Origin: Promethearchaeota archaeon
GTDB lineage: Archaea; Asgardarchaeota; Lokiarchaeia; Sigyniarchaeales; SOKP01
Assembly: GCA_019058365.1 (NCBI GenBank)
Contig: JAHPZE010000013.1
Span: forward strand, 1 to 64,000
DNA: 64,000 nucleotides
Direction: 5' to 3'
Under the pieces are notes generated by a model. The model was not told the DNA's origin. It saw only the letters and a program-made list of their open reading frames with translations, and made no database searches. This document shows positions 5,055 through 64,000 of this stretch, one piece after another. The first letter of the stretch is position 1. Each line of letters begins with the position of its first letter. The translations under genes and the position numbers were made by a program.

Positions 5055-5615
5055 TCAAATGAATACTATTGCTGATGATGCACAAATGTTAATTATACCA
5101 GTTACCAAATAAAGAATTCTCCAAGCATCTCCATTATTGAAAAATAACGCAAATGAGATAACGACCCATATGAAAGAACTTATTGGGAAAATTAGTTTGC
5201 TATGCATACCTTTATTTTGTATTTTGTTGGATGTAAATCTAATCAGAGTGGGAATAAGATATGCAAGTAAAGAGCTCGTAATAAGAAAAACTAGAATAAT
5301 TATTTCCCATGTCCATAATAAACTTGCAAATATAGAACAATATCCAATTATTATTATAGCCGCTATAATTAAAGGTTCTTTAGCTATCTTATCCACAAAT
5401 CTTATTGAAATTAAGAATATAATTGAAAATAATATGAAACTTAAAGCCATTAAATTCGCAATTGGGATGTTATAAACAAAAATTGACCACTGAGATTCAA
5501 GAATTTCGGGATTCAAAAACATTAAGAGATTGTAAATGGGTCCTGAAAAGATACTGGCCAAAACAGCAAATGGTATAAAAAACTTTAAAATTATGAGTTT
5601 CTCCATGTTATTCAT
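5055..5615 (-). CDS. Six-helix membrane protein resembling half an MFS transporter
   Basis: Six hydrophobic segments; WRILYLVTG motif. Confidence 0.55.
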   Translation of the reverse strand: MNNMEKLIILKFFIPFAVLASIFSGPIYNLLMFLNPEILESQWSIFVYNIPIANLMALSFILFSIIFLISIRFVDKIAKEPLIIAAIIIIGYCSIFASLLWTWEIIILVFLITSSLLAYLIPTLIRFTSNKIQNKGMHSKLIFPISSFIWVVISFALFFNNGDAWRILYLVTGIINICASSAIVFI

Positions 5616-9049: not shown

Positions 9050-10438
9050 TTACTTTTCTAAAAGTTTATCAATTATATCCATTCTTTTTTTAGTTTTCTT
9101 AAGGTCATGTTGGAGTTTCTTTGAACGCTTAACATACTCATCATCATTTAATTTTCCTGATGAGTGTTTTTTATCAATAAATTTCAATAAATCTTGAACT
9201 GAACTTAATTTTGTTTTTAAACCTTCCTTTTCATCTTTTAATTCATTTTTGGATCTGGCTTTTGTTTTAGTATTAAGCTTAGGAGGTGGCTTTAATTCAC
9301 GTTCATCTTTTTTCAATCTTTCTGGTTTTGGTGGAAGAGCTGTTAAAGATGGTTCTTCTTGAAGAATAGTATCTTCAATATCTTGTTTACTTATTTCTTC
9401 AGAATTATCTATCATGAGATCTTCAGTTTGCTCACTAATATTAATCATTTGAGAAGATTCAGATACTTGATTATTTTCTGAAATTTCTAACTCAAATATT
9501 CCATCATCTGAATTTATCGCCTCTTTTATCAACTTATCAACTGTAGATTTTATAGTATTAATTTGGCTTTGGAATATTTTTAATAATTTTACGAGGTCAC
9601 TTTTTTTAGAAATCTTCATTGAAAAATCAAGATCTAGTGATCTGTTATTAGCAGGAGTATAAGGCATAGATATTTCTTGTTGTTCTGATAATTTTTGTGC
9701 ACTTATGGATGTTTGAGGAATAGGAACCGGAACATCTTCATTTGCTCTCAATTCCATTCGAAAATCAGAGACAAGCCATTTAAAAATATTTTGTGCTAAT
9801 TGGGGGTTGTTATTACATTGAAAGCCTCCGCCTATCTTATCTCTAAATAATTCATAACTTCCAATACAACAAACTCGTCCCTTTTCTGGTTCTGATACAC
9901 AGATAAGAGGACATGAAAAAGGTTCAGATGTTTCATTTGAATCGGCGATTGAAAACGCACCACTTCCAATAATCGAAAGTGAAGATCCTGATCTATAACA
10001 TAGGGTACCTATATCCGCAGTAATAGGATGTGGGATATTAAATACAGAAATTAAAGGTATATTTTCTATTCCCAAGTTAATCCGCTCATCTAATACTTGA
10101 TCATTTTCAAAAATAATTCCAAATTGTTCTGATATTTCAGATAAATTACTCCCACGACCTTTATCTCCACCTGCATGAGATAATAATAGTAATCCTCCTC
10201 CAGAATTTTTCACCCAATTTACGATAGTATTTATTTCAAAAGAAGAGATTCTAGCAAAATCTGGGCATACAAAAACAAGAATATCATATGGTGTTAATGA
10301 TTCTTCTGTGATTGGTACTTCTAAATAATTATAACAAATAAAATCATTTGAATTTAAATAATCTCGGAGTTCAGTAAGATTTTCATCAATTCTACCTCTT
10401 GGTTTGTGAGAAATATCAAATGCAATATGATATGGCAT
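9050..10438 (-). CDS. GIFT (IFT52/GldG, DUF4350-like) domain protein with low-complexity linker and C-terminal coiled coil
   Basis: IAFDISH, YDILVFVCP, GGGLLLL, N..SEQFGI.F.ND, HPIT, GRV..IG. Confidence 0.65.
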   Translation of the reverse strand: MPYHIAFDISHKPRGRIDENLTELRDYLNSNDFICYNYLEVPITEESLTPYDILVFVCPDFARISSFEINTIVNWVKNSGGGLLLLSHAGGDKGRGSNLSEISEQFGIIFENDQVLDERINLGIENIPLISVFNIPHPITADIGTLCYRSGSSLSIIGSGAFSIADSNETSEPFSCPLICVSEPEKGRVCCIGSYELFRDKIGGGFQCNNNPQLAQNIFKWLVSDFRMELRANEDVPVPIPQTSISAQKLSEQQEISMPYTPANNRSLDLDFSMKISKKSDLVKLLKIFQSQINTIKSTVDKLIKEAINSDDGIFELEISENNQVSESSQMINISEQTEDLMIDNSEEISKQDIEDTILQEEPSLTALPPKPERLKKDERELKPPPKLNTKTKARSKNELKDEKEGLKTKLSSVQDLLKFIDKKHSSGKLNDDEYVKRSKKLQHDLKKTKKRMDIIDKLLEK

Positions 10439-43410: not shown

Positions 43411-44050
43411 CGGTTCAACCCCACGTATGCGGGAGTAATTCATAAATCCAACTATCCATATTAAATTGACTCGATTCATCCCCGTGTGCAAGGTGGTAAT
43501 AAAAACATAATTATTAATAATTTTTCATCTTTCCGATTCATCCCCATGTGTATGGGGTAAATTGCCTAATTCTGCTTCAGACATCGTATTCCTCCGATTC
43601 ATCCCCATGTGTATGGGGTAAATAAATAGATGATGGTTCACATTTTCTTGAATGGCGATTCATCCCCACGTGCAGGGGTAAAATGTATATATTTTTTTAA
43701 TATTTCTTTAATTTTTCGATTCATCCCCACGTGCAGGGGTAAAATAAATTCTATTTATGAACAAATGGTTATAATTCCGATTCATCCCCACGTGCAGGGG
43801 TAAAATAGATATTTGAATGTATAAACTGTGGGGCGCGACGATTCATCCCCACGTGCAGGGGTAAAATTCCTTCTACGTTTTTTGTCATGATTATTCACCC
43901 GATTCATCCCCACGTGCAGGGGTAAAATGAGGCGATATTAGAAAAGATCTTCAAGTATATCGATTCATCCCCACGTGCAGGGGTAAAATTAATTTTGCTT
44001 GCCCTAGCTTCGCGTTTTCCACGATTCATCCCCACGTGCAGGGGTAAAAT
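43411..44050 (-). CRISPR. CRISPR array: 11 repeats of 29 nt, 10 spacers of about 32 nt, type I-E-like repeat, no cas genes in window
   Basis: CGATTCATCCCCACGTGCAGGGGTAAAAT identical at 43656, 43717, 43778, 43839, 43900, 43961, 44022; variants at 43411, 43472, 43534, 43595; 61-nt period. Confidence 0.97.
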
Positions 44051-48853: not shown

Positions 48854-49651
48854 CTAATAAAAGGAATTTATATACGTCTGCTTCTTTCTGCTGAATTCTT
48901 CAACTTCAATGATCTTGTTAATTAGAAAATCTACCGCATTAACCAAGTGAGTATCATCAATATACTTATTCTCAAAAGTGATAAAATTTTGTGTATTATT
49001 ATTTATTCGCAATTCTATACCCAGCTCCTCAAATGGTACTTTTAAATGAGTCCAATTCCCTCTTGATTGCTCTTTAGCAATGTCTAAATATTTTTTAGTT
49101 TCGGTAATTTTTTTTGGATTCTTGATAATAACTTTATTATCACGATCCCAACAAGAGATCGCAGTAAAATCCTTTATACCTAAAGCATTAACAAGAGCAT
49201 TTAACTGATCCCTTTTATATTGAAATAAAATGGGTTGATATCTAAAAATAAAGTGATATTTCTCTTTTAGTTTGGCAAGAAGATCATCGCTTAATTTATT
49301 TGAAATTTTAGCTCTTGTATAAAAACATAATATTCTTTTTCTGGGATTTAAAACTATTTTTATTAAAATTGGATATTGCTTTGTTTCACTTAAATTAGGC
49401 GTTTCAGTATATTTAAAGTAAGATAATTCAGTCTTAATAGTGGGTATATACTTTACATCGATTTCAAAATAATCAGATATATAATAATTTTCATTTACGG
49501 GTTCAAATATTTTCTTATACAATCCTGCTTGAAGAATATTGGAATTATTGTCGAAACTAGCTGAATAATTATTATCCTGTAGTATCAGTTGCCTAATTAT
49601 ATCTACTTCATCCTTTATCGCAATATCAAAATAGATTCTTAACGATGGCAT
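48854..49651 (-). CDS. Hypothetical alpha/beta protein in an operon with the AAA+ gene
   Basis: Starts 3 nt after the ATPase stop codon. Confidence 0.7.
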   Translation of the reverse strand: MPSLRIYFDIAIKDEVDIIRQLILQDNNYSASFDNNSNILQAGLYKKIFEPVNENYYISDYFEIDVKYIPTIKTELSYFKYTETPNLSETKQYPILIKIVLNPRKRILCFYTRAKISNKLSDDLLAKLKEKYHFIFRYQPILFQYKRDQLNALVNALGIKDFTAISCWDRDNKVIIKNPKKITETKKYLDIAKEQSRGNWTHLKVPFEELGIELRINNNTQNFITFENKYIDDTHLVNAVDFLINKIIEVEEFSRKKQTYINSFY

Positions 49652-49654
49652 ATA

Positions 49655-50779
49655 TTATCTCTTTTCCTTAAATATAAATTCCTTTTGTAAAATATCTTCA
49701 TAAAAACTTAAAAATAATTCATTCATTTGATAACGCGATGGATTTCCATATTTTATCTTTTTAAACACATATTTCTTGGTTAAATTTTCTAAATATTTCC
49801 ACGCAATAGTTCTATCATAGTCCAAGTCGTCTTTTAAGTCTGGCGTGGTAATATAAATTCTATTTTCTAATTTCAAGTAATAATCAATTATTTCTTGTTC
49901 TTTGGCTGTGATTTTTTGTTTTTTTACGTTTAAATATTTTGTTATAATATTTTCTATAAGTTGCTGTGGGATTGTTTTTAAATTCATGATTCGTGCCTGC
50001 TGGTGAATCTCTTTAAAAAAAAGAAAGCATAAATTTAAATTTCCTTGAAAAGATTTCGCAATTTTCGGTAATAGCTCATTAATTATTTTATCATAATAAT
50101 GTTTTGATTCTTCAGTCTGGATTAAAAACTCATCCGTCCGTCTTTTAAAGATCTCGATTATATCATTACGGGAGAAATTGTTGAAGTATATTTCTCTATT
50201 AACAAGTATATCGTTCTCTAAAGGAAAGTCTCTTGTATGCCAAACTGAAAAAGTTAATTTTGTGTTTTCCTTGTAATCTTTAATTCTTTTCAAAAAAAGA
50301 TATTTATTTTTTCCTGCACATGAGATAATCCGGACATCAAGTTCTTGATTATCTAAACTATCTACTTCTTTTTGAGACATTGATTCGTTAGTCTTGTAAT
50401 TGAAAGAAAACTCTAAATTGTAAAACTCAAATGTAATTTCTGGAAAAGATTCAATTATATAATTTGTAATTATTTTAAGTGTAGTATGTTTCCCAGAACC
50501 TTTAGATCCGATAATGGCAATGTGAATATTATAAGGAAGTTTTTTTGCTTTTCCAAAATATCCAGAGATAACCTTAACTTCTGATTCACGGTTCACAAAT
50601 AATTTAATTAGATGAGGTGTAAATGACTTTTCAGGATTGAAACCATCAAGAGGATTTTCAGAATAAAAAAACCTTCGATACCAGAAAGGGGAATCTTCTA
50701 CAATGGACTCTTTGTGTTTAATACCACCCTTTACAGATTTAACTACTAAATCTTTAAGATGATTGTTTTCTTTTGACAT
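49655..50779 (-). CDS. Cdc6/ORC-like AAA+ protein with C-terminal winged helix
   Basis: LFVNRESE, GSKGSGKHT Walker A, FQGNL sensor region, DYDRTIAWKYLENL HTH; Walker B degenerate. Confidence 0.7.
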   Translation of the reverse strand: MSKENNHLKDLVVKSVKGGIKHKESIVEDSPFWYRRFFYSENPLDGFNPEKSFTPHLIKLFVNRESEVKVISGYFGKAKKLPYNIHIAIIGSKGSGKHTTLKIITNYIIESFPEITFEFYNLEFSFNYKTNESMSQKEVDSLDNQELDVRIISCAGKNKYLFLKRIKDYKENTKLTFSVWHTRDFPLENDILVNREIYFNNFSRNDIIEIFKRRTDEFLIQTEESKHYYDKIINELLPKIAKSFQGNLNLCFLFFKEIHQQARIMNLKTIPQQLIENIITKYLNVKKQKITAKEQEIIDYYLKLENRIYITTPDLKDDLDYDRTIAWKYLENLTKKYVFKKIKYGNPSRYQMNELFLSFYEDILQKEFIFKEKR

Positions 50780-50942: not shown

Positions 50943-53216
50943 ATGAATTCGAATTTATTTATATCAAATGAAGTAGTTTTTAATATGATAAAATTACCGT
51001 ATTACACTATAGATCCAAATATTAGCCCAGATGATTATTATAGAATAGTAAAGGGTGCTGAATGGCAATTATTCAACAAACGCTTTTATCCTGCTACGTT
51101 TGGAAATAAAATACTATTTATTGGTAATAAAATAGAACCTCCTAAGAATTTAACAGTGGATAAATATAGATTTTCTTTATCAGAAGACAAAATTACATTA
51201 AATTCGATGGATCATAATTATATTCTTTCAAACATAATTCGTAATGTATTAAGACGACAAGCCTTTTCAAAAGGATACACTGGACCTGAAGGACAAAAAT
51301 TTTATAAAAGAAATCCATATAAAACAAAATTTTTTGCATTTCATGACGCTTTTTATTTAGAAACAGAAGTATTTCCCGATGGTAATATCGGTGTTTGGTT
51401 AGATCCTTCTACTAAATGGAAATGGCATTTGAAAGATTTAATAAATAGTTTAACCCCAGAAGAACAAGAGGATATCTATAAACAACTTGTTGGAAAAAAA
51501 ATTAAATATCCTAGTGTAAAAAGAAACCAACTTTATAAAGGAACTATTACCGAGGTTATTACTAGAACTTATAAAGAATATGAAATCAGTATAAACGGGG
51601 AAAACTATACCATTTTTGATTTTTGGATGAAATCAAGCGAAGATCATAGAAAGTGGTTGGCTAGGAATAAAATCTCACTGAAACCAGAAGGTTTTCCAAT
51701 AGTTATGGTTCAAATTCCAAACTTAAAATTCTCCATTCCTTATCCAGTTGAAGTTCTTGAGCTTGTTATTGACATCACTGATCCTTTAATTCCTTTAGAT
51801 ACATTTGACGAAAAAAAAATTCAGGCTCCCCTTAAAAGAATTAATGAGACATTTAATTTATTTGATCAGATCCTAAATCATGGCTTAGATTTAGGGGATT
51901 TTAAAATTACTTTTTCTCGACAATTATATAATTGGGAAAAGTCTCCTTACGGGACTATAATTTCTTTAGAAGCACCCAAACTTCAATTTGGGAATGATAA
52001 CACTATTGATCCATTAAAACCATGGCAAGATCCAGATATAAAGAGTGGAATGTTTCAATTTGGACCAGTAGATAAAAAAAAAGAAATAAAGGTATCTTAT
52101 ATAGGTCCATCAAGTGAAAAAGATAATTTTATGACATTTAATAAGTACTTGAATCTTCATGCTAAAAAACTGCATTTAGGAACTTTTGAGCTCACGAATA
52201 TTTTTCCTATTGATAGAATTCATCCAGATAGGTATTTGCGTATATGTCAAAGTGTTGGTCAACAAATAGAGAATCAAATATCATTTGTCATTTTACCTAA
52301 ATTTAAAACAACTAAAACCTATTACGCAGCAAAAAGAGGACTTGGAAAAAATTTTATAAAAAGTGCAATGATACAATGGAACACTTTTAAGAAACTTTTA
52401 AGTGCCAGTTCTCAAGGACGACTTTCATTTGAAAACTATAATATTGCTCTAAAAGCATATGGAAGATTTTTAGAAAGTGGAGAGGCGATCTGGCATCTTA
52501 AAGAACCTGCAGGAGGATTAAATGCTGCTACTAATAATTATTTTTTGGGATTTGATGTTTCACGTAATCCCGAAAGTAGAAAAGAAGCAGCTGCATATGC
52601 TGCAGTTTGTGATAATTATGGAAAAGTTCTCTATAAAAGCTCTATTGACTCGCATAGAGGAGAAAATATTATTTCTGAAATATTAAGTGATTGGTTCTTC
52701 GAAATTGCGACTTCTACGTATGATGAAATTGGAAATGAGAAAAAAATAGATTGTATGTACCTTTTTAAAGATGGACCTATTTCCCATCCACAGGTTAAGG
52801 AGTATGAAAAAGGATCACTTTTGGCAAAGGAGCGTTTGATGGAGGAGCATTTAATGACAAATGACTCTGATATTAAGACTATTGCGGTTATTAAGCGAGG
52901 TTTGCATAGATTCTATGGAGATGAAAAATTAGGATATAAGATTAACTATTCAGGATTAATTCGTAGCCCTAAAGAAGCGATTCTAATTACTTCTCGCCCA
53001 AGGTTTGGAACAGCGGCAACTACTCGAATTGAGCTTACTCATCAGATGAATAACAACATAGATATTTCTCAAATTGCTAAAATGTTTAATGATTTACGGT
53101 ATTTGGATTGGAATTCGTTATTTTCTCAACCAAAAACTATTTTACCACTTCATATTGTTCAGAATTTAGCTAAATTAAGTAAAGAAGATGTGATTGTACC
53201 TTATGATCCAAGGTAA
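50943..53216 (+). CDS. ago: Long prokaryotic Argonaute (N-L1-PAZ-L2-MID-PIWI)
   Basis: PAZ-like TIFDFW...PIVMV...PYPVEVL; APKLQFG L2; MID YYAAK...NIALK; PIWI FLGFDVS, RGE, LFKDG, IAVIKR, GTA, LRYLDW...LPLH. Confidence 0.92.
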   Translation: MNSNLFISNEVVFNMIKLPYYTIDPNISPDDYYRIVKGAEWQLFNKRFYPATFGNKILFIGNKIEPPKNLTVDKYRFSLSEDKITLNSMDHNYILSNIIRNVLRRQAFSKGYTGPEGQKFYKRNPYKTKFFAFHDAFYLETEVFPDGNIGVWLDPSTKWKWHLKDLINSLTPEEQEDIYKQLVGKKIKYPSVKRNQLYKGTITEVITRTYKEYEISINGENYTIFDFWMKSSEDHRKWLARNKISLKPEGFPIVMVQIPNLKFSIPYPVEVLELVIDITDPLIPLDTFDEKKIQAPLKRINETFNLFDQILNHGLDLGDFKITFSRQLYNWEKSPYGTIISLEAPKLQFGNDNTIDPLKPWQDPDIKSGMFQFGPVDKKKEIKVSYIGPSSEKDNFMTFNKYLNLHAKKLHLGTFELTNIFPIDRIHPDRYLRICQSVGQQIENQISFVILPKFKTTKTYYAAKRGLGKNFIKSAMIQWNTFKKLLSASSQGRLSFENYNIALKAYGRFLESGEAIWHLKEPAGGLNAATNNYFLGFDVSRNPESRKEAAAYAAVCDNYGKVLYKSSIDSHRGENIISEILSDWFFEIATSTYDEIGNEKKIDCMYLFKDGPISHPQVKEYEKGSLLAKERLMEEHLMTNDSDIKTIAVIKRGLHRFYGDEKLGYKINYSGLIRSPKEAILITSRPRFGTAATTRIELTHQMNNNIDISQIAKMFNDLRYLDWNSLFSQPKTILPLHIVQNLAKLSKEDVIVPYDPR

Positions 53217-53258
53217 AAATTCATATAGATGAATATCAAAAATTATATTATAGCAAAC

Positions 53259-53385
53259 AAGACAAAAATAAAAACTAAATTAAAACGATTGGAAAAGAAG
53301 AAAATTTATTTGAATAATTTGTGATTATAAAGGGAGGATAAATTATGCCAGAATTCTTGATTGAATTTATTAATAATCAAAATGA
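53259..53385 (+). repeat. Direct repeat copy 1 (nurA upstream region, RBS and first codons)
   Basis: 127 bp, 3 mismatches to 57760-57886; ATG 53345 starts MPEFLIEFINN and then diverges. Confidence 0.95.
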
Positions 53386-53515
53386 GAAGATCATTTTTAA
53401 TTTGATATATTTATGCAGGATGATAATTAATCATTTTCATTCTTTAAAGAAAAAATTCTATAATGCAAAAAATTTTAAATTAAAACATTAAGGTTAGAAT
53501 CTTAAGGTGCCATAG

Positions 53516-56500
53516 ATGGGATCAATCCAAGAAGAAAAGAAGAAAAGAAAGAGAAATGAAAAAGAAGAAGAGAAACTCGAGAAGGTAGAGAAGAAATCAA
53601 TGAAGAAAGAAGATATAAAAAAAGAATCCAAAATTATACAAACAGTCATCGATAGAAAGGAAATTGTAGAAGATAGCATTAAAGCAAAAGAAGAAGAAAA
53701 ATCAGAGGGTAAAGAAAAGAAAATATCCCTCACGGAAGATGAAAGACTAATTCTAATGACACTAAATTTCGTGGATAGGCATAAAGGCGGGTTGAGCATA
53801 ACGGGATTTCAGATAAAAGATTTCTTGCAGTTAATCTTTTTAGGTAAAGATGTTGATAAGCTTTACTTTCAGTTAAAAGAAAAGGAATTTATCGTTAGGA
53901 GGAGAGATTCAGAGGATTTCTCTGTTTCATTTGAGGGACGACAAGTAGCGGAAAAGCAAGATGATTTATTAAAACACATTTTTATTGAAATCGGAAGGAA
54001 ATTAGAAGATTTCTTGAGTGAGAGTGGAATATTAAAGAGAGTGCTTTATTTTGCCCAAGAAAATAAATGGAGTTTCAGACAATACCTTCCGAGAATTATA
54101 CTTAGCTTAGATGAATTGGAACAAGTATTAACTATTTTTTTCTTAGACGATTTGTTCTTGGACATTCCAGCTGTTAGTAAAGTGATTAGGAAATTAAGGA
54201 AGGAGCAACAATCCAAAATACAAGAAGTATTGGCAAATTACTGCAAAGATTTAGATTTCCTGAAAACTCTTGCTATATTGAAAATGGACGAGATTAAGGA
54301 TAAATTAGGTGTAGAAACCGTTAGTATAGTCCATTACAAGCCATTTAAAGACATCCTTTCGGAAGTCGTGGAAAAGTCAAAAATAGAAGAAATCTTGGAA
54401 AAATTGCTCCTATTGGGAATCACCGAATCATATAACTTCTTCGGAATCGATACCCTATCGATTCTAATGAGTGAGGAAAATATCTCCAAGCTAAAGAATT
54501 GGATGGCATTTGATGAGGATGCGTTCAAAAGGCAATTAGAAACCAACTGGAACATATTTATAAATGCAAAAAATGCGGTAGAAAACGCAGTGCTCTTTGA
54601 TTTTAAGGGATTAATAAAATCCAAAGCTGTTTTATTTTATAAAAATAATGTCTTGGTCAGAAAGGAAGTGAAAGGTGCTTTTGTAGAAGTGTATGAAAAA
54701 GTTAAGGAGAAATTGAAAAATAAGATTAAAGAAATAGAAAATGTCCTTATATCTCCATTTTATGAGGTTAATAGGGATGAATTAAAACAATTTAGGGGAA
54801 AGATCATAATTGTATTGCACGCAGTTGATTGGTGGACGAAAAAATATTACTTTCCCGTAATTAGAGAAGAAGAATTGGTAAATAATGTGATTCTTCTCAT
54901 TTCTCCAAAAGAAATCGGTTTTCGTTTAGATAAAGCACTGAATTATTCTAATAGTCAAAGAGTATTGGAAATACCAGATAAAAATGTGGAATTTAATGCG
55001 GTGGGCGAAATTGATAATATTGAGTTAGTTAAATCAATTTTAAATGTTTGCGAATGGGTTTTGGAAGAAGAATATTATTCTGTAAAAAGAGCTAAAGAGA
55101 TTATATATGAAAAACAATACCCTCCAATATCTATAGAACAAGCAATAAATCAATTAAAAGAAGGAATGAGAGAGATCGATGGTAAAGTCTTAATAGATGC
55201 ATTATTAATCTCTATAAATAAACCAACTAATTATAGTGGAACTTTTATCTATAGAGATAATGGGCAGTTTACTAAAAATCATTTATGGTATCATTTGGAA
55301 AATATACTTAAACTGAAATATAATTTAAAAGGAGATCATTTCATTAAAATTAAAGAAAGTCTTGAAGAATTAATTGAAGGAAAGGCAAGGATGGATCTAT
55401 TTACTTTAGGATTAGGTTCTAGACCTGGTTCTGACATATATTACTCTAAGGAAAAAAAACTTTTATCCATAATATTTAATAATTATAATGTAAAATCTAT
55501 TATCTTATCTTCAATAGAAAGGTTAGATCAAATATCAATAGAAATTGTTTGGATTTATCTTAAACTTTTTATTAAAATTGAAGTGAATATCGATGTTAAT
55601 AGATTTAAAACTATTTATGAGATTATATTTAATAAAAAAATAGAGAATGATAATGATATTATAAATGCTATTAATAAAACGGGAATCTCTATTGCAGTGA
55701 AAAGAGGTACTCATTTTAGTCATTACAGATTTCCATATATTTTAGATAATGAATTAGATATCGAATTACTCTCTTTTCTAGAAAAACGAATACAAATTAC
55801 TCAACCTAATTATGATACTTTTATTAAATTATATAAAAAGAAGATTATTGAATTAGTTGGTTTGGATTATCTCTTGAATAATGATGGATATTGTAGAAGA
55901 AATAATTTAAGAGAGTTCTTGTGGAAGGTCTCTCTGGAAGCGTGGGATAAATTTGATTCATATGAGGGATTGATATCATCAAAAGAAAGTGAGATAATAG
56001 CTTTAAATCCACTTTTACTAGATGAGTTGAGGGTATTTCTAAGTGTTCGTAAAAGAAAAATAATTGAAAGCCAAGAAAGATTGAAAGAGGTAGTATTATC
56101 ATCGAAAATAATTGATTCGTTAATAGAACTTGACGAAGATCTGGTTATTCTAAAGGGATTTATAACATTACAGAATAAAGAAGATATAACAGTGATAATA
56201 GTCCCTTGGTATCTACCAATGTACGAGAAATATCTTGGAGAGAAGGCATTAATTGTAATAACTGACCAACCCGACTACAAAACTTTTATAGACACCATTA
56301 AAGCTATTAATAAAGAAATAACATTAATATTCTTAAAAGATAACCTATTTTACCTATTTTCTACCTTTAGAAATGTTAATTTTATAAATTCCTTACTATC
56401 AAAACTGGAAGAGCACGGTTTTGCATTAATCTCAAAAGAAATTTTGTCTTTAGAAACTTCGGAAGAATCGAGGGTGAAGGAAGAGTTAATTACACTACAG

Positions 56501-57682
56501 GCAGAAAAAGAAGAAACAGGTGAAATATTCGAAGTGAAAGAATTAGATCTATTTGGAGAATTATTCGATACAGACTTGAAGGGCTTTCCTATTGGGTTGG
56601 GAACGGAAGATCCAGTAGTATTGATACTTTCTAAGACGGAAGACGACAATTACAGTGCCACTCTCCAGATATTATGTAGAGAAATATATAGAGAACTAAT
56701 TAAAGGCTTGCCCCTCCCGAAAAGAATAACAGAAGAAAGAATAGAGGAAGAAACGGATGTGAGTGATAGAATCATATTCGTTGACGATGATAAAGCAAAG
56801 AAACTTGGTTTTGGAAAAATATCACGCAATGAGAATATTAACTGGGTTAATCTTGGCAAGAAGCTACAAGAATTCTATTCTCAATACTTTGGTTTCTATA
56901 TTTTTGAAATTCCGATGGATAAAAAGGAAGAATTTAAAGAAAAACTCATAACTCATACTAAAGATCTTAGACCCAGAATAATCCAAGTAAAGCCCTTATA
57001 TTTAGGAAGAAGAATTATTTTAGATATTACCGAAGAAGGAATTAAGGAGATTTCTGACTTGGTTAAGTTCAAGAAGAAGATATGTAGCCTAATATGGGGA
57101 TTTGTAACACCGAAGGGCGACGATAGATGGGAGCGGGGAGATAACTTCGATAACTTCTTTAGTAGTTGCGAAAGTGAATATAATAAAAGATTAAGAAATA
57201 TGGAGATTGAGAAGATTAATGTTGAGGGTAAAGAAATGAGTGTTCCAATTCTAGTTAATAGAGGTGTAAACGAGAGTGATCTGCATTTTCGAATCAAGGT
57301 CTTTATTGTAAAATACTTGTATGAAACAAAGAAATATTCAAGGGGTTCTGTAAAAACAGAACAAAAAATAGATGGAAAAGAAATTTACCCTGATATCCAA
57401 GCAGGTAAAATCATCTTCGAAGTAGAAACACTGTATAACTCTGAAAGACCATTGAGTAAGCTTGTAGAAAAGGTCAAAGATTATAAGAACGATGGAAAAA
57501 AGCTCATTATCGTGTTAAAAAATGTTGATGTTTTTCTATATTACACACAACTAATAGATTTGGAAGAAGAATTAAGGGATGAGGGTATGGATGTGGAGTT
57601 CAAATCTCTTAATTTAGGGGATAATATAATTTTTCACATAAAAGAAATTGGTAAGTCTTACCATTCTTTCTTTAAAAAATAG
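53516..57682 (+). CDS. 1388-aa protein with C-terminal PD-(D/E)XK nuclease-like domain
   Basis: ESDLH..IK...KTEQ...YPDI......EVET; K/E-rich N-terminus followed by a winged-helix-like segment. Confidence 0.65.
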   Translation: MGSIQEEKKKRKRNEKEEEKLEKVEKKSMKKEDIKKESKIIQTVIDRKEIVEDSIKAKEEEKSEGKEKKISLTEDERLILMTLNFVDRHKGGLSITGFQIKDFLQLIFLGKDVDKLYFQLKEKEFIVRRRDSEDFSVSFEGRQVAEKQDDLLKHIFIEIGRKLEDFLSESGILKRVLYFAQENKWSFRQYLPRIILSLDELEQVLTIFFLDDLFLDIPAVSKVIRKLRKEQQSKIQEVLANYCKDLDFLKTLAILKMDEIKDKLGVETVSIVHYKPFKDILSEVVEKSKIEEILEKLLLLGITESYNFFGIDTLSILMSEENISKLKNWMAFDEDAFKRQLETNWNIFINAKNAVENAVLFDFKGLIKSKAVLFYKNNVLVRKEVKGAFVEVYEKVKEKLKNKIKEIENVLISPFYEVNRDELKQFRGKIIIVLHAVDWWTKKYYFPVIREEELVNNVILLISPKEIGFRLDKALNYSNSQRVLEIPDKNVEFNAVGEIDNIELVKSILNVCEWVLEEEYYSVKRAKEIIYEKQYPPISIEQAINQLKEGMREIDGKVLIDALLISINKPTNYSGTFIYRDNGQFTKNHLWYHLENILKLKYNLKGDHFIKIKESLEELIEGKARMDLFTLGLGSRPGSDIYYSKEKKLLSIIFNNYNVKSIILSSIERLDQISIEIVWIYLKLFIKIEVNIDVNRFKTIYEIIFNKKIENDNDIINAINKTGISIAVKRGTHFSHYRFPYILDNELDIELLSFLEKRIQITQPNYDTFIKLYKKKIIELVGLDYLLNNDGYCRRNNLREFLWKVSLEAWDKFDSYEGLISSKESEIIALNPLLLDELRVFLSVRKRKIIESQERLKEVVLSSKIIDSLIELDEDLVILKGFITLQNKEDITVIIVPWYLPMYEKYLGEKALIVITDQPDYKTFIDTIKAINKEITLIFLKDNLFYLFSTFRNVNFINSLLSKLEEHGFALISKEILSLETSEESRVKEELITLQAEKEETGEIFEVKELDLFGELFDTDLKGFPIGLGTEDPVVLILSKTEDDNYSATLQILCREIYRELIKGLPLPKRITEERIEEETDVSDRIIFVDDDKAKKLGFGKISRNENINWVNLGKKLQEFYSQYFGFYIFEIPMDKKEEFKEKLITHTKDLRPRIIQVKPLYLGRRIILDITEEGIKEISDLVKFKKKICSLIWGFVTPKGDDRWERGDNFDNFFSSCESEYNKRLRNMEIEKINVEGKEMSVPILVNRGVNESDLHFRIKVFIVKYLYETKKYSRGSVKTEQKIDGKEIYPDIQAGKIIFEVETLYNSERPLSKLVEKVKDYKNDGKKLIIVLKNVDVFLYYTQLIDLEEELRDEGMDVEFKSLNLGDNIIFHIKEIGKSYHSFFKK

Positions 57683-57759
57683 TATAAATAGAGCTTTAAA
57701 TATAATTGTAATTGGAATCTATTTCAGATTTTATTAAATTTGAAAATATTAGAGCATTT

Positions 57760-57886
57760 AAGACAAAAATGAAAACTAAATTAAAACAATTGGAAAAGAA
57801 GAAAATTTATTTGAATAATTTGTGATTATAAAGGGAGGATAAATTATGCCAGAATTCTTGATTGAATTTATTAATAATCTAAATGA
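57760..57886 (+). repeat. Direct repeat copy 2, containing the functional nurA start
   Basis: 4501 bp downstream of copy 1; GGGAGG RBS and ATG 57846. Confidence 0.95.
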
Positions 57887-59108
57887 AAAAACCAAGCGAA
57901 TTTTAGAGAATTTTGAAAATAAGGAAATTAATAAGCTATACGAGAAGTTATTTCCTTTTTATTGGATTGATCATGACATAGAAAATCATGATCCCACTCA
58001 AGAGGTAATAGCTATTGATAGTAGTAGGGGGCATTGTCCGACTAATAATGGTGGATTTTTTTTTGTTTCTAGAGCTATGGCTTATGGAAATCAAAAAAAA
58101 TATAAAGAAGTTTATACAGATTTTGACTTTTCAAATGTTAAAACACAATCTGATTATATTGGAAGAGTAATGGAATGGACGGAGCATTCAGTCGCAATAC
58201 AAGCTATTAAAAAGGGATTTACAAAGTATGTTTTAATTGATGGTTCTATTTATGGGAGATTATCTCATTTACCAATGGAGTTGAACTTAGATAACAACAA
58301 GGGTTTTATGATTCAATATTTTGAGACTTACTTAAATCTATTGGATATATGTAAAAAGAAAAAAATACCTCTAATTGGTATTAGTAAAGAAAGTCGAACT
58401 TCCTTTTTCCGGGAGTTTTTAATAAAACAAATATTAAAAAGTAAAATTTCAAACTCCCAATTACTAAATAAATTACTTTCAGAAGCTTTAGATTTTCCAA
58501 AAAATGCAATTAAACTTGCAAAAAGTACAAAAGATGACGATATCATTTTACTTACAGAAGAACTTATTGCCCGAAAACCAGACTCTTTATTGATTTTAAA
58601 TAATGCTCATCACGCAGGATATACAAAACCACTTATATTAGGGGGAAGTGCGAGATGGCGACGGGCTGAAAAGAAAATTAAGGTGGATTCAAAGGGTTAT
58701 ATTGAGTCTAGCTTTCCAATATTATCAGAAGATATTAAATTTTTAAATCAAGCTAAAAAAATTATTACTAAGATGCTGGATTTTCCGAGCATCGTGTCTT
58801 TTCATATTCTACCCATCCTCGCAGATACACCTTTAAGAATAGATATTCCATCATGGTATTTTGGTATAGATAGAAGGCTTTTAGATGTTGGGTGGCCTGA
58901 AGTAGTAAATTTGGACTTAAGTGAAATCCTTAAATTAATCTCAGCAGGTTATTGTGGATTGGGAAATTATAATATTTGGCTTACAGCCGTGGATAATGAA
59001 GTTAGATTATCCAGAAAAGATTTTGAAGAATTATATTTAAAAAAGTTTGAAGAAATTATAGGTAAAAAAGCAACACCAAGAGGTTATAGACGTGTTAGAT
59101 ACCCGTAA
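57846..59108 (+). CDS. nurA: NurA 5'-3' nuclease
   Basis: IAIDSS, LIDGS.Y, GISKES, PLRID, GNY..WL..VD..VRL; overlaps herA. Confidence 0.9.
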   Translation: MPEFLIEFINNLNEKTKRILENFENKEINKLYEKLFPFYWIDHDIENHDPTQEVIAIDSSRGHCPTNNGGFFFVSRAMAYGNQKKYKEVYTDFDFSNVKTQSDYIGRVMEWTEHSVAIQAIKKGFTKYVLIDGSIYGRLSHLPMELNLDNNKGFMIQYFETYLNLLDICKKKKIPLIGISKESRTSFFREFLIKQILKSKISNSQLLNKLLSEALDFPKNAIKLAKSTKDDDIILLTEELIARKPDSLLILNNAHHAGYTKPLILGGSARWRRAEKKIKVDSKGYIESSFPILSEDIKFLNQAKKIITKMLDFPSIVSFHILPILADTPLRIDIPSWYFGIDRRLLDVGWPEVVNLDLSEILKLISAGYCGLGNYNIWLTAVDNEVRLSRKDFEELYLKKFEEIIGKKATPRGYRRVRYP

Positions 59109-60705
59109 AATTGGAATTATAATAGGACAAGTAAAAACATCTGAATTTATTTTTGCAACTAACTATGATGTAAACCGGTTAGAATATGTAGCTATAGAAT
59201 CACAAGAATTAATAGAAACTGAGGAAGGGAACTTAGAAGAAATACCAATTGTAATAATAAGTCAGATATTTGAAGTATGGGCGGATTCAAGAGCGCTTCC
59301 TGAAGGTCTGAAAATTGAAGATGCAGAAAAAATTATGGCTGCAGGATTAGCAGATTCAAAATTTTTTGCTAAAACTCGTATCCTTGGATATTTACATGAA
59401 GAAAATGTCTTTCAGCCTAGAAGAGCGATAAATCCAGGTAATTTTGTACACATAGCTCCTAATGAACTTTTAGAACAATTTTATTCTTACCCAGAAGAAG
59501 AAGGATTGCATATAGGTCATTTAATTACTCGATCTGATGTTCCAGTATATATTACTGTAAATGGATTTAGAAGACACCTCTCTATATTGGCTCAAACAGG
59601 AGGGGGAAAAAGTTATTGTGCTGGGGTGCTCACAGAAGAATTACATAGAAAAGGAGCAACTATCGTGATCATAGACCCACACGCTGATTATGTGTTTTTG
59701 GGTTCAAGAATTGACGGAACAAGAATAGATCGCGTTAATGTTTTTAGAACGCCTCAAAGTACAGGGAGATATTCAGAAGTAGATATAGGAAGGATGATAC
59801 AACAATATGAAGTAAGGTTTTCTGATTTAACAATTGATGAAATTTTTATGATTAGCGGCATTCGTGAGTCATTTACTCGAATTAGAAATGCAGTACAAGA
59901 CGCATTAACTAATTTAAGAGAAAATTCGAGAGCAAATGCTGATAGACCCCTAGTAGGACCAGACGGTTATGATTTGAATGATTTATTACAAGAATTACAA
60001 GATTTAAATACTAATGATTCCAGGAATGCTGTAAGATATATAAGAAGGATTCATAGATTAGGAGTTTTTAGTAATGCTACTACTGATATCTCAAGAATCA
60101 TTCTTCCTCAACAAATTTCCGTAATTGATTTGTCAGGATTATCAGACAATGTAGCAGATTATATAACTAACCGAATTCTTTCTGAAATATATGAACAAAG
60201 GAGAAATGAAACTTACCCTTATCCTGTATTTATATTTATGGAAGAGGCACATAGATTCTTGCCAAATAAAGGAAGAACTTATTCCATTGAAACTGTCAAA
60301 GAAATTTCTGCTGAAGGACGGAAATTTGGAGTTTTTTTAACTTTAATTACGCAAAGACCATATAAAATTGATCAAGACGCTTTAAGCCAGTGTAATAGTC
60401 AAATAATATTACGAATCACAAACTCGGAAGATCAAAATGCAATAAGAACTAGTTCCGAAAAGTTGAGTGAAAGTTTACTTAATGATCTACCCGGCTTAAA
60501 TCCTGGAGAAGCTGTTATTGTTGGTAATTTGACAAGGGCACCAGTAATGGTAAAAATTCGAAGGCGAGTAACAAGAGAGGGTGGCGCGGATATTGATGTT
60601 GTTAGTAGCTTAAGAGCTGCCAGAGAAGTCGTTGAACAAGGAGAAGAAGAACAAGCAGAGCAGGCTCATGAGGAACTAGAAGAATTAAGAGAGATGTTGG
60701 AGTGA
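59092..60705 (+). CDS. herA: HerA helicase/translocase
   Basis: HAS barrel; RHLSILAQTGGGKS, IDPHADY, FMEEAH, EGRKFG, TQRP, SQCN. Confidence 0.94.
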   Translation: MLDTRKIGIIIGQVKTSEFIFATNYDVNRLEYVAIESQELIETEEGNLEEIPIVIISQIFEVWADSRALPEGLKIEDAEKIMAAGLADSKFFAKTRILGYLHEENVFQPRRAINPGNFVHIAPNELLEQFYSYPEEEGLHIGHLITRSDVPVYITVNGFRRHLSILAQTGGGKSYCAGVLTEELHRKGATIVIIDPHADYVFLGSRIDGTRIDRVNVFRTPQSTGRYSEVDIGRMIQQYEVRFSDLTIDEIFMISGIRESFTRIRNAVQDALTNLRENSRANADRPLVGPDGYDLNDLLQELQDLNTNDSRNAVRYIRRIHRLGVFSNATTDISRIILPQQISVIDLSGLSDNVADYITNRILSEIYEQRRNETYPYPVFIFMEEAHRFLPNKGRTYSIETVKEISAEGRKFGVFLTLITQRPYKIDQDALSQCNSQIILRITNSEDQNAIRTSSEKLSESLLNDLPGLNPGEAVIVGNLTRAPVMVKIRRRVTREGGADIDVVSSLRAAREVVEQGEEEQAEQAHEELEELREMLE

Positions 60706-60712
60706 ATAACAT

Positions 60713-61810
60713 ATGAGAATTGCTCATTTAGCTGATACACATTTAGGATATAAACAATATAATCTTGATGAAAGAGAACAAGATATCTATGATGCATTTA
60801 ATCAAGCTATTGATAAAGCAATTGAAGAACGTGCAGATGTAATTATTCATTCAGGAGACCTTTTCGAAAGAAGCCATCCTCCAATAAAAGCATTATTGAC
60901 CTTAAAGGATGCTCTAAAAAAGATTAGGGGCAAAATTAAATTTCTATCTGTATTAGGAGAACATGATATTCCTAAGAGAAAAGCAATAATACCACATAAA
61001 TTGTTTGATATTCACCTTCTTGGAGCAAATTATAAGCTAGAAACGACAAAAATAGATAATGTATTATTTGCTGGAATATCAAATCTTAAAGGTAGATATG
61101 TTGGAACGTTAAAAGAAGAGATAAAAAGATTTGATAAAATTGCTGAAGACTATAAACACTCAGTATTAATTTTACATCAAGCGATAAAAAAATATTTGCC
61201 ATTCGAAGGTGCTTACCAATTAACATTAGATGAGCTCCCAAGAAAAGCTAGTTATTATGCATTAGGTCATATACATGCTAAAAATGAATTAAAGTTTGGA
61301 AATGGGCTATTAGTTTATTCTGGTTCTACAGAGATTATGAGTAAAGATGAGATCTCTTCTTGGAAGAACAAGGGGAAAGGTTTTTATCTTGTTGATTTAG
61401 AAAGTGATGATATCAATTATGAATTTATTCCTCTCGATATTAGACCTCAAGTCTCTATTGAATTAAATGTTGCTAATATCGAAAAAATCCTTGATTCTCT
61501 AATTTTTGATAAAAAACCCTTGTTACATTTAAAAATATTTGGAGAAAAAATAGAAAAAAGTTATGTTCAAGAACAAATAGAGAGAATTGTAAGAGATAAA
61601 GTAATTTTTCATCGTATTCTATTTCGAGAAGCAGGAATAAAGGAGGTTAAAATACCTCAAGATGCAATAAATCTCTTATCAATATTTAAAGAATATTTTG
61701 AAAAAGAAGAAATTGGTGAATTTACTAAAAATCTTTATGATATTTTATCCGAACGTGATATAAATTCTGCGATAAGTCTCGCTAAAAATTTTATGGAGGA
61801 GTATGACTAA
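60713..61810 (+). CDS. mre11: Mre11 nuclease
   Basis: ADTHLG, HSGDLF, GEHD, HQ, ALGHIH, YSGS. Confidence 0.94.
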   Translation: MRIAHLADTHLGYKQYNLDEREQDIYDAFNQAIDKAIEERADVIIHSGDLFERSHPPIKALLTLKDALKKIRGKIKFLSVLGEHDIPKRKAIIPHKLFDIHLLGANYKLETTKIDNVLFAGISNLKGRYVGTLKEEIKRFDKIAEDYKHSVLILHQAIKKYLPFEGAYQLTLDELPRKASYYALGHIHAKNELKFGNGLLVYSGSTEIMSKDEISSWKNKGKGFYLVDLESDDINYEFIPLDIRPQVSIELNVANIEKILDSLIFDKKPLLHLKIFGEKIEKSYVQEQIERIVRDKVIFHRILFREAGIKEVKIPQDAINLLSIFKEYFEKEEIGEFTKNLYDILSERDINSAISLAKNFMEEYD

Positions 61811-64000
61811 AAAGATGATAATTAAATCAATTAAAATGGAAAACTTTATCTCACACCAAAAAACTGAATTCCCTTTCCCTGTGGGGGTATTAGTAATAGT
61901 CGGAGAAAATGGTTCAGGAAAATCTTCTATTATTGATGCTATCTTCTATTCTTTGTGCGGCGTACAAGTTAGGGGTGATAATGTTGATGATTTAATAAGG
62001 GAAGGAACGAAGAAGGCAAAAGTCAATTTGCTATTTGAGCATAATGGTATTGCATATGAAATTGAGAGAGTACGTGAAAAAGATGTCAATCCATATGCTT
62101 TATTGAAAAAGGATGGAAGTATAACAGCAAGAAAGCAAACTCCTGTAAGTGAAGAAATTGCAAGGATTTTAGGCATGGATAAAGAAGCAATAATTAATTC
62201 AGTTTTTATTCGACAGGGAGAAATAACAAAATTAATTGATGGTACGCCTAGTGAAAGAAAAAAAACTATTGCTAAATTAATTGGCATTGAAAAATTAGAG
62301 AAATGTTATGATAAAATGAGAAATGTCATAGATTACTTCGATAATCAATTGAATGATTTTGATATAATTAATACAAAATTACAAGGAGAGCAAGAATCTA
62401 AAACCGAGTTAGATTCAGAAATTGAGGAACTTACAGGAGATATTAATAAAATAAAAAAAGATGTCATAATTGCTGAAGACATTTTTAAAAAAACAGAGGA
62501 TAAAAAGAAACTTTGGGAAAACAAGCGAAAAGAACATCAGGAACTGAAAAGTAAGAAAACAAAGAAAGGGGAACAGATCTCGTCTACTAATGAGAAAGTT
62601 AATAATCTAACTACTCAAGTCAATGATGCTAAAAAAGCTCGGGAAAGAGTTACTGAATTAGAACCTCAAATAAGGAATATTGAAATATTAGAGAAATATA
62701 TAGAAAACTTTAGGAATAAAAAAATTACTACCGAAACTCTTGAACGATTGAATAAAGAATTTGAAAAGGTAAATCAATGGATAACAATTTTAAGTATTAA
62801 TAAAGACAAATTTAAAGAATTTAATGAAATTAGTGAGAGTTTAAGCCAAAAAGAAGATGAAATAGAGAACTTGAGAAAAATTGAAAAGGAGTATATTGAA
62901 CTGAAAAAAGATATTGAAAACACTCAAAAAAAATTAACTGAATACAAGGATGAGATTGAAAATATTAATGAAAAAGCATTGAAAGTTTTACCCAGAGCAG
63001 AGAAAAAAGAAAAAGACAAAAAAATGAAAGAACTAAATAGTAAATTAAAAGAATTAGAAGGAAATATATCAAATATAATAAGTTCTAATGGAGCTATTAA
63101 AGGTAGAATTAAAGAAATTGACAATTATTTATTAAAATTTCAAGATAGCGATGAGTGCCCTGTATGCTCAAGTGAACTATCACCTAACCATAAACAGAAA
63201 GTTATAACGGATTTTAAAAGAGAGAAAAGTGGTAAAACAAAAGAAATCGAAGAGAATAGGGAAAATATCTCCTCTTTAGGAAAGGAGCAAAATCAATTCA
63301 GAGATCAACTTGATAACATAAAAAGTTTAGATTTAGATAAATATAAAGAGTTAAAAGAAAAATTTGAAAATCTGGAAACTCAGTTAAAAGAGTTTGAGAT
63401 AAATAGACAAGAGAAGGGAAGAGCAACAGAAAAATTGAGACTATTGGAAGATCAAAGCAAAATTGAAAAAAAAAGCGTTGAAGAATTAAAACCAAGATAT
63501 AATGATTATATTGCAGCAGAAAAAGCATTGGAAAATGAGAGAGAGATAAAGGAAATACAAAATGAGATCAATGAATTTAATACTAAATTAACTAAGATTA
63601 TGGAAGTTGATTCAAAATTAGCTAATCAATTAAAGAAAATTCCTGAGAAACCTGAAGAAGAACTTAATCAACTTAGAAAATTAAAAGAGGAATATATTGT
63701 TGCTAAAGGTGAAAGTCAGAAATTAGAGAAATTTCAAAAAGATTTAATCAATACAGAAAAAATTTTGAATGATTTTATCTCTGAATCAAAAAAAATTGAT
63801 TCTGAAATTAATTCTTTAGGATATAACGAAGAACTATATGAACAAGTTCTAAAAAAGAACAATGAAGCAAGTAGTACCTTAGAAAAGCTAAAAAATAGTG
63901 TGAATCTAAAAATCATTGAATTAGATAAAAAAAACCAAAAATTAAATGAACTTAAACAAAAAATTAACGATCTACTTAAACAAATGAAATCTTTTGAAAA
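61803..64000 (+). CDS. rad50: Rad50 ATPase, runs off the window end (alternative start 61815)
   Basis: ENFISH, GENGSGKSSIIDAI, FIRQGEI, coiled coil, zinc hook ECPVC near 63153 in the same frame; absent from the ORF track because no stop falls in the window. Confidence 0.93.
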   Translation, partial: MTKKMIIKSIKMENFISHQKTEFPFPVGVLVIVGENGSGKSSIIDAIFYSLCGVQVRGDNVDDLIREGTKKAKVNLLFEHNGIAYEIERVREKDVNPYALLKKDGSITARKQTPVSEEIARILGMDKEAIINSVFIRQGEITKLIDGTPSERKKTIAKLIGIEKLEKCYDKMRNVIDYFDNQLNDFDIINTKLQGEQESKTELDSEIEELTGDINKIKKDVIIAEDIFKKTEDKKKLWENKRKEHQELKSKKTKKGEQISSTNEKVNNLTTQVNDAKKARERVTELEPQIRNIEILEKYIENFRNKKITTETLERLNKEFEKVNQWITILSINKDKFKEFNEISESLSQKEDEIENLRKIEKEYIELKKDIENTQKKLTEYKDEIENINEKALKVLPRAEKKEKDKKMKELNSKLKELEGNISNIISSNGAIKGRIKEIDNYLLKFQDSDECPVCSSELSPNHKQKVITDFKREKSGKTKEIEENRENISSLGKEQNQFRDQLDNIKSLDLDKYKELKEKFENLETQLKEFEINRQEKGRATEKLRLLEDQSKIEKKSVEELKPRYNDYIAAEKALENEREIKEIQNEINEFNTKLTKIMEVDSKLANQLKKIPEKPEEELNQLRKLKEEYIVAKGESQKLEKFQKDLINTEKILNDFISESKKIDSEINSLGYNEELYEQVLKKNNEASSTLEKLKNSVNLKIIELDKKNQKLNELKQKINDLLKQMKSFE

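Follow-up and report, generated by a model that had tools for sequence, protein, structure and literature searches.

Insertion of a candidate nuclease gene between ago and nurA with duplication of the nurA start in a Lokiarchaeal genome

A 64,000-nt stretch of DNA from a Promethearchaeota archaeon (contig JAHPZE010000013.1 of assembly GCA_019058365.1; the whole stretch is called the window here) carries a 4.5-kb cassette between ago, which encodes a long prokaryotic Argonaute (Ago), and the operon nurA-herA-mre11-rad50. The cassette contains one long open reading frame (ORF) of 1388 amino acids (aa), hereafter the cargo, and is bounded by a direct repeat that includes the start of nurA. The arrangement probably arose in a single, recent event of the kind called insertion with long target duplication, without a recombinase encoded by the element. 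The positions of the features are listed in Table 1.

Table 1. Features of the cassette and its resident neighbours in the window, with repeat pairs on other contigs (C) of the same genome; RBS, ribosome-binding site
Feature	Position	Strand	Remarks
ago, long prokaryotic Argonaute, 757 aa	50943..53216	+	Piwi, PF02171; resident, left of the insertion; relatives at 91, 82, 56, and 56%
Repeat copy 1	53259..53385, ragged 53245-53393	+	3' part of the ago-nurA spacer, RBS, first nurA codons; left part matches L075
91-bp core, identical in both copies	53288-53378 and 57789-57879	+	11 changes absent from the empty-site relative L075
nurA stub, dead-end ORF, 48 aa	53345..53491	+	ends 24 bp before the cargo start
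Cargo gene, 1388 aa	53516..57682	+	only long ORF between the repeat copies
Repeat copy 2	57760..57886, ragged 57746-57894	+	spacer, RBS, true nurA start; right part matches L075, L028, L029
nurA, intact, 420 aa	57846..59108	+	PF09376; first gene of nurA-herA-mre11-rad50; 92% to L075 and L028 proteins
herA, mre11, rad50	59092..64000	+	resident context; rad50 extends beyond the window to contig position 64505
Repeat-pair loci, examples	C2:8770-12886; C17:8350-10644; C24:82694-89157, 106753-111111		
Repeat-pair loci, more examples	C41:23922-30770; C44:978-9719; C11:6727-10036		

The two copies of the repeat are identical at 124 of 127 positions and are offset by 4501 bp, with mismatches at 53270/57771 (A/G), 53287/57788 (G/A), and 53379/57880 (A/T). 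Partial, ragged matches lengthen the repeat to about 149 bp; the ragged left end agrees at 10 of 14 positions (about 0.006 by composition, for a stretch picked after the fact). Each copy contains the RBS GGGAGG (53332-53337 in copy 1, 57833-57838 in copy 2) and spans the first 11 codons of nurA. Copy 1 opens the 48-aa dead-end ORF, and copy 2 opens the intact gene, the product of which matches PF09376. Neither the ORF list nor a Pfam scan revealed an integrase or transposase in the cassette, and the terminal inverted repeats detected were only AT-rich pairs at chance level. No further copy of the repeat or the cassette was found by a sequence search of the 4.74-Mb genome (G000). A preliminary description of this DNA had reported the near-identical 127-bp repeats with three differences, their coverage of the upstream region, the RBS, and 11 nurA codons, the dead-end peptide behind the first copy and real nurA behind the second, and the 1388-aa ORF as the sole gene without integrase or transposase; direct comparison, the ORF list, and the Pfam scans bore out all of these.

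The contig depth in the source run was 85.5x for the left flank, 82.7x for the cassette, 88.4x for the right flank, and 177.3x for the collapsed 91-bp core. Because the depth of the core is doubled compared with the flanks and the cassette, two real copies of the repeat are present. Run SRR14802574, taken as the source run, contains the identical Ago. Since the assembly may have been built from these same reads, the values serve as a consistency check and not as an independent sample. The contigs break at the core, which is longer than the contig word size, and can neither phase the copies nor reveal rare forms or an excision joint. A large cassette-free fraction or an excess of circles was not seen in the contig depth of this one run, and the locus was absent from runs X2 and X3.

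An ago-nurA junction free of cargo, which the preliminary description had proposed to seek in related genomes, was found in the relative L075 (ENA ERZ27275891 k141_2090523, a metagenome contig of 1528 bp). It comprises the 3' end of ago, a 128-bp spacer, and nurA, and its spacing is exactly that between ago and copy 1 in the window. After removal of one copy and the cargo, the looped-out window aligned with L075 over 1528 bp with 92.3% identity and no gaps. L028 also matched both arms (92.9% left, 91.0% right) and possesses a single nurA start. Because these two relatives show ago and nurA as earlier neighbours, the comparison indicates that the cargo is the incoming piece. Against L075, the two copies show 17 and 18 differences in 127 positions, 11 of them inside the core, compared with 3 between the copies themselves; the duplication is therefore recent, having been made from the resident sequence or homogenised with it. 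Wherever the copies disagree and L075 shares the base of one, that one is copy 1 in the left part of the repeat and copy 2 in the right part, which is the pattern expected of insertion junctions. A short ORF at 53229, considered as the start of another nurA clade, was rejected as it is ordinary spacer according to L075.

The same scar recurs throughout the genome. Using pairs of 45-450 bp that were at least 85% identical and 0.5-30 kb apart, 21 local two-copy direct repeat pairs were counted in G000 versus 1 inverted pair; their sequences are unrelated and their lengths range from 47 to 325 bp. Many duplicate the start or the end of a gene, with an upstream stub and an intact downstream gene also at C2, C17, and C44, and the mirror layout at gene ends elsewhere. 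The enclosed cargos include an SMC/LmuB-like module, a methyl-directed restriction enzyme cluster, metabolic and toxin-antitoxin-like genes, and, likewise free of integrase, transporter and amidohydrolase-like genes. Comparison with relatives covered C2 and C17. The C2 site is empty in G027, G099, G095, and other genomes and filled in G021 and G031, and its copies have drifted to 90% identity; such cassettes can therefore stay in place over long periods with no loop-out. The density was similar in three further Lokiarchaeal genomes, where 1.2 Mb contained 6 direct pairs and no inverted one. Small tandem duplications or RNA-gene targets may account for some of these pairs. GC-rich non-coding pairs, perhaps RNA genes or fragments, are located at C35:90692-90804 and 94083-94195 and at C39:138330-138498 and 140035-140208. 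The genome-wide count suggests that this insertion route feeds the large accessory gene pools of Lokiarchaea. A broader proposal, that Lokiarchaea routinely gain genes by integrase-free insertion (about 4-5 visible events per Mb, with duplications of 50-320 bp at gene starts or ends) and that the nurA start is a recurrent entry point for a nuclease effector of an undescribed archaeal family that homologous recombination could remove again, is speculative and, taken as a whole, seems doubtful to us.

The codon use of the cargo gene is atypical and foreign-like, with a GC content at third codon positions of 0.274 versus 0.203 +/- 0.031 for the genome and a codon distance at the 98th percentile. 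No match to the protein was obtained in Pfam and PADLOC scans, and a PDB sequence search and a Pfam scan of its alignment gave no family. The homologs number 101 at the 50% level, of which about 20-30 have the N-terminal part in common; many archaeal proteins of 550-680 aa match only in the last 400 aa, and the archaeal family comprises two size forms of about 600 aa and 1350-1400 aa. The possibility that the cargo is the short form fused to its upstream partner was rejected, as no profile match was found. The structure models are confident (pLDDT 89 for the one with the nuclease-like domain, and 87). Behind a charged N-terminal tail, they contain winged helices at about aa 66-152 and 648-762 and a degenerate AAA+-like fold at about aa 1012-1165, in which a Walker B-like motif is retained and no Walker A is visible. 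The C-terminal domain (about aa 1250-1375) is PD-(D/E)xK-like, and its top structure matches all belong to this superfamily, although weakly (Z of 6.6 at most). The similarity to XisH, YaeQ, and the nuclease domain of Can2/Card1 (Z 5.5-6.6) is at the fold level only, with no match in Pfam, PADLOC, or PDB sequences. As in PD-(D/E)xK nucleases, the domain carries a PD...ExE motif that is invariant in 74 homologs; the invariant residues are H1257, K1261, E1282, D1293, E1302, and E1304. A Foldseek search with the N-terminal 915 aa returned nothing significant. The weak fold match and the conserved motifs make the cargo a putative PD-(D/E)xK nuclease and its family an uncharacterised archaeal nuclease candidate.

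Full-length cargo homologs adjoin restriction-modification genes in L014, L016, and L045 and stand among housekeeping genes in L133. In the flanks fetched, none of these four loci is at an ago-nurA junction or has flanking repeats. The conserved linkage to Ago that would mark an Argonaute-associated effector is not seen at these loci, and for the Argonaute-NurA-HerA-Mre11-Rad50 operon the 1388-aa gene is a late addition and not a core subunit. Short cargo homologs are located 2-6 kb from short-Argonaute modules at L046:744-5883 and L195:5028-14560, which is compatible with co-location in islands. A two-gene cassette at L040:8487-12677 (G080:C49) encodes proteins of 420 aa and 666 aa, the latter a short cargo homolog, and has a 59-bp direct repeat (93% identity).

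In the explanation that we favour, foreign DNA with one nuclease-like gene would have entered the ago-nurA spacer by host recombination or break repair. The resident spacer and nurA start would have been used at both junctions, leaving nurA intact behind copy 2 and a dead stub at copy 1. For the joining step, two routes fit the data and are not separated by them: a template switch between ends that match in part, or one crossover with a donor copy of nearly the same sequence, after which the copies would have been homogenised. The cargo would share a transcript with the operon, and would most plausibly act as a restriction-like nuclease in defence. If RadA recombined the two 91-bp cores, the cassette could be lost and ago-nurA restored to its exact former state, as a matter of passive instability and not of a programmed switch. 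Such a loop-out is possible in principle, and no excised fraction is visible in the contig depth.

Several points weigh against this explanation. The molecular step is reconstructed from the sequence outcome, and the mechanism in the literature is itself a hypothesis. The evidence for the polarity of the copies consists of three single-nucleotide polymorphisms (SNPs), the ragged ends, and a single outgroup; at C2 and C17 the polarity is weaker or missing. In L025 (GCA_019058355), an independent dead-end nurA stub of the same clade was found at 5530-5580, 76 bp after ago, and is cut at nearly the same codon as that in the window (22/26 match, 0/5000 shuffles), a hint of a hotspot. No methyltransferase accompanies the cargo, the activity of which is predicted. 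The match to the nuclease fold reaches a Z of 6.6 at best, which is weak, and draws on the conserved motifs as well.

Misassembly, which the preliminary description had set against an insertion, was rejected as the core is at double depth and the three unique pieces are at equal depth. An assembly artefact, or an empty chromosome together with a 4.5-kb circle at equal copy number, might be entertained in so far as the contig graph alone cannot phase copies at a core where contigs break. However, in addition to the depths, the flanking SNPs are paired in the integrated phase in the assembly and the cassette has no recognisable replication gene, which makes this account highly improbable. The preliminary description had also allowed that ago and copy 1 were the incoming DNA; they would then have been joined ahead of a resident cargo-nurA locus. 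This is scarcely credible, since L028 matches both arms, L075 joins ago directly to nurA, cargo is beside nurA in no relative, and the atypical codon use is found in cargo and not in ago, even though modules of this nurA-herA-mre11-rad50 clade with no Ago exist in L018, L020, and L022. A tyrosine recombinase supplied in trans could have integrated the cassette site-specifically, in which case the repeats would be the attL and attR of a reduced, integrase-less element. Two tyrosine recombinases (PF00589) are encoded in G000, on the other contigs C7 and C46, the left-right polarity resembles attB/attP hybrids, and the L040 cassette has its own direct repeat; yet the archaeal att sites on record are shorter than 127 bp (8-69 bp, PMC6563490), the repeats of the genome vary widely in length and share no sequence, and cargo homologs do not have the ends of the cassette in common. 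We regard this route as improbable.

The preliminary description had gone further and suggested an exchangeable effector slot. In such a reusable, selected slot, cassettes carrying the spacer and the nurA 5' end would integrate and excise by homologous recombination and thereby swap effectors of the Argonaute-NurA-HerA-Mre11-Rad50 system. The DNA just upstream of this nurA clade does differ in nearly every relative, being empty in L075 and occupied by two small ORFs (L028), a membrane-protein remnant (L029), another long Ago (L021), a pair of nuclease and short Ago (L077), or a 966-aa gene (L076). The same Ago is followed by nurA of other clades in L017, L024, L025, and L200, L025 retains its second, independent nurA stub after ago, and loop-out would restore the ancestral site. 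The search for different cargo in relatives thus did find other genes upstream of nurA, but none of these occupants is bounded by repeats, and no second cargo bounded by the 127-bp repeat was found among the relatives examined. Moreover, the four full-length cargo homologs lack ago, nurA, and any flanking repeat in the DNA fetched around them, five Ago relatives (L075, L017, L024, L025, L200) lead straight into nurA without such a gene, the depth is flat, and about 20 similar repeat-bounded insertions with the same layout are at unrelated genes. The slot was accordingly not borne out and is quite unlikely, and a programmed form with a defined exchange mechanism is not supported, because no other occupant is repeat-bounded and no second cargo has the repeat. 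As both the upstream occupants and the downstream nurA clades vary, the ago-nurA junction is an often-rearranged module boundary, at which the one-off insertion remains the preferred reading.

Further observations concern this boundary. A divergent pair of genes (265 aa, and 374 aa with a P-loop and a helix-turn-helix; window 48854-50779, minus strand) is kept ahead of the gene that precedes nurA, and is also present in L017, L024, L025, L028, L076, L077, and L200 as a constant frame with a variable middle. The middle gene is a long Ago, a short-Ago pair, or the 966-aa gene, for which identification as an Argonaute was not supported. At least three kinds of Argonaute directly precede nurA-herA-mre11-rad50 in Lokiarchaea (the 757-aa clade, a 789-aa long form, and a short form with a nuclease partner), and the modules that follow them belong to three different clades (L021:226-2595; L077:10793-13708; L017; L024; L200). 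In L025 the stub is followed by a different NurA (389 aa), OLD, and WYL, so that the resection module behind Ago is replaced. Fragments of ago at unrelated loci (G018:C84:2162-2409, G018:C71:41978-42225, G002:C41:9656-9772), which are either the 3' end together with spacer or stop-bearing internal pieces, show frequent island turnover.

The surroundings form a defence-rich island with a clustered regularly interspaced short palindromic repeat (CRISPR) array, WYL, an OLD nuclease, Ago, and nurA-herA-mre11-rad50. The tetrad of Ago (window 52554-53162) appears to consist of D538, E574, D610, and Q740, which are kept in 5/5 aligned relatives. The CRISPR-like array (window 43472-44050) has a 29-nt repeat, a 61-bp period, and about nine repeats, with no cas genes among the neighbouring ORFs scanned. 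A six-gene run directly after rad50 (G000:C30:64764-77822) is presumably BREX-like, judging by size, order, and N-terminal sequence. A protein with an IFT52 GIFT domain (PF23355), a eukaryote-like feature, is encoded at window 9050-10438 on the minus strand. No relative of Ago or the cargo was found on viral contigs, and a scan for sigma-70 promoters and terminators, the model of which is unsuited to archaea, gave nothing usable.

Among known mobile elements, an insertion sequence or transposon was rejected, as there is no transposase, there are no terminal inverted repeats, the repeat is not short, and the cassette is single-copy in the genome. General scans for the features of an integron cassette revealed no long palindrome at the ends, no Rfam match, and no recombinase nearby. 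A Campbell-type single crossover duplicates the 5' fragment of a gene as two hybrids, of which one is a dead stub and the other is intact, and is reversible by homologous recombination. For such insertion-duplication the donor must be a circle that carries the site in near-identical form, and no donor of this kind was found here. The cryptic integrated elements of Thaumarchaeota (Krupovic et al. 2019, PMC6563490) and the Atabeyarchaeia elements (PMC11529989) resemble the cassette in being small, flanked by direct repeats, and able to target protein-coding genes or spacers. In contrast, they have an integrase, att sites of about 8-26 bp (Yucahu-i, 11 bp), and gene 3' ends as targets, none of which was seen here; several coexist as circles, of which none was seen in the contig depth of the one run. 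With no integrase in the cassette, a cryptic integrated or integrative element was rejected.

Insertion with long target duplication has been defined by an insert below 20 kb, a duplication above 30 bp, no other mobile element, and an empty site in a relative, and the cases include repeats spanning translation starts, insertions into operons, a lone nuclease (mcrA), and orphan methylases; no archaeal case passed the selection (Furuta et al. 2010, PMC2853133). In Helicobacter pylori, the copies were alike at 417/423 positions versus 345/370 to the empty site, and break-driven insertion with amplification between repeats was proposed, release and reinfection being unproven (Furuta et al. 2010, PMC2853133). 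The locus in the window has a duplication of 127 bp (124/127 identical), a 4501-bp unit with one ORF and no other mobile-element gene, and an empty site with one copy in L075. This type of insertion is reportedly also treated by Nobusato et al. 2000 (Gene 259:99). The narrow restriction-modification form does not apply to a single nuclease-like gene with no methyltransferase domain, but the broad class still does because lone mcrA and orphan methylase cases are listed in it. By its sequence layout, the locus is a structural fit to this known kind of integrase-free scar. It shares with the class a repeat that spans the translation start, an intact target gene, insertion into an operon, and a nuclease-like cargo, and, as in the H. 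pylori cases, its copies are nearer to each other than to the empty site. It differs in the Asgard host, in the single uncharacterised nuclease-like gene without methyltransferase, and in that the same scar here also flanks metabolic and toxin-antitoxin-like cargo. No earlier description in this host group was found in the literature searched, and the locus represents a clean case, with its empty site, in an Asgard archaeon of a class described mainly for bacterial restriction genes.

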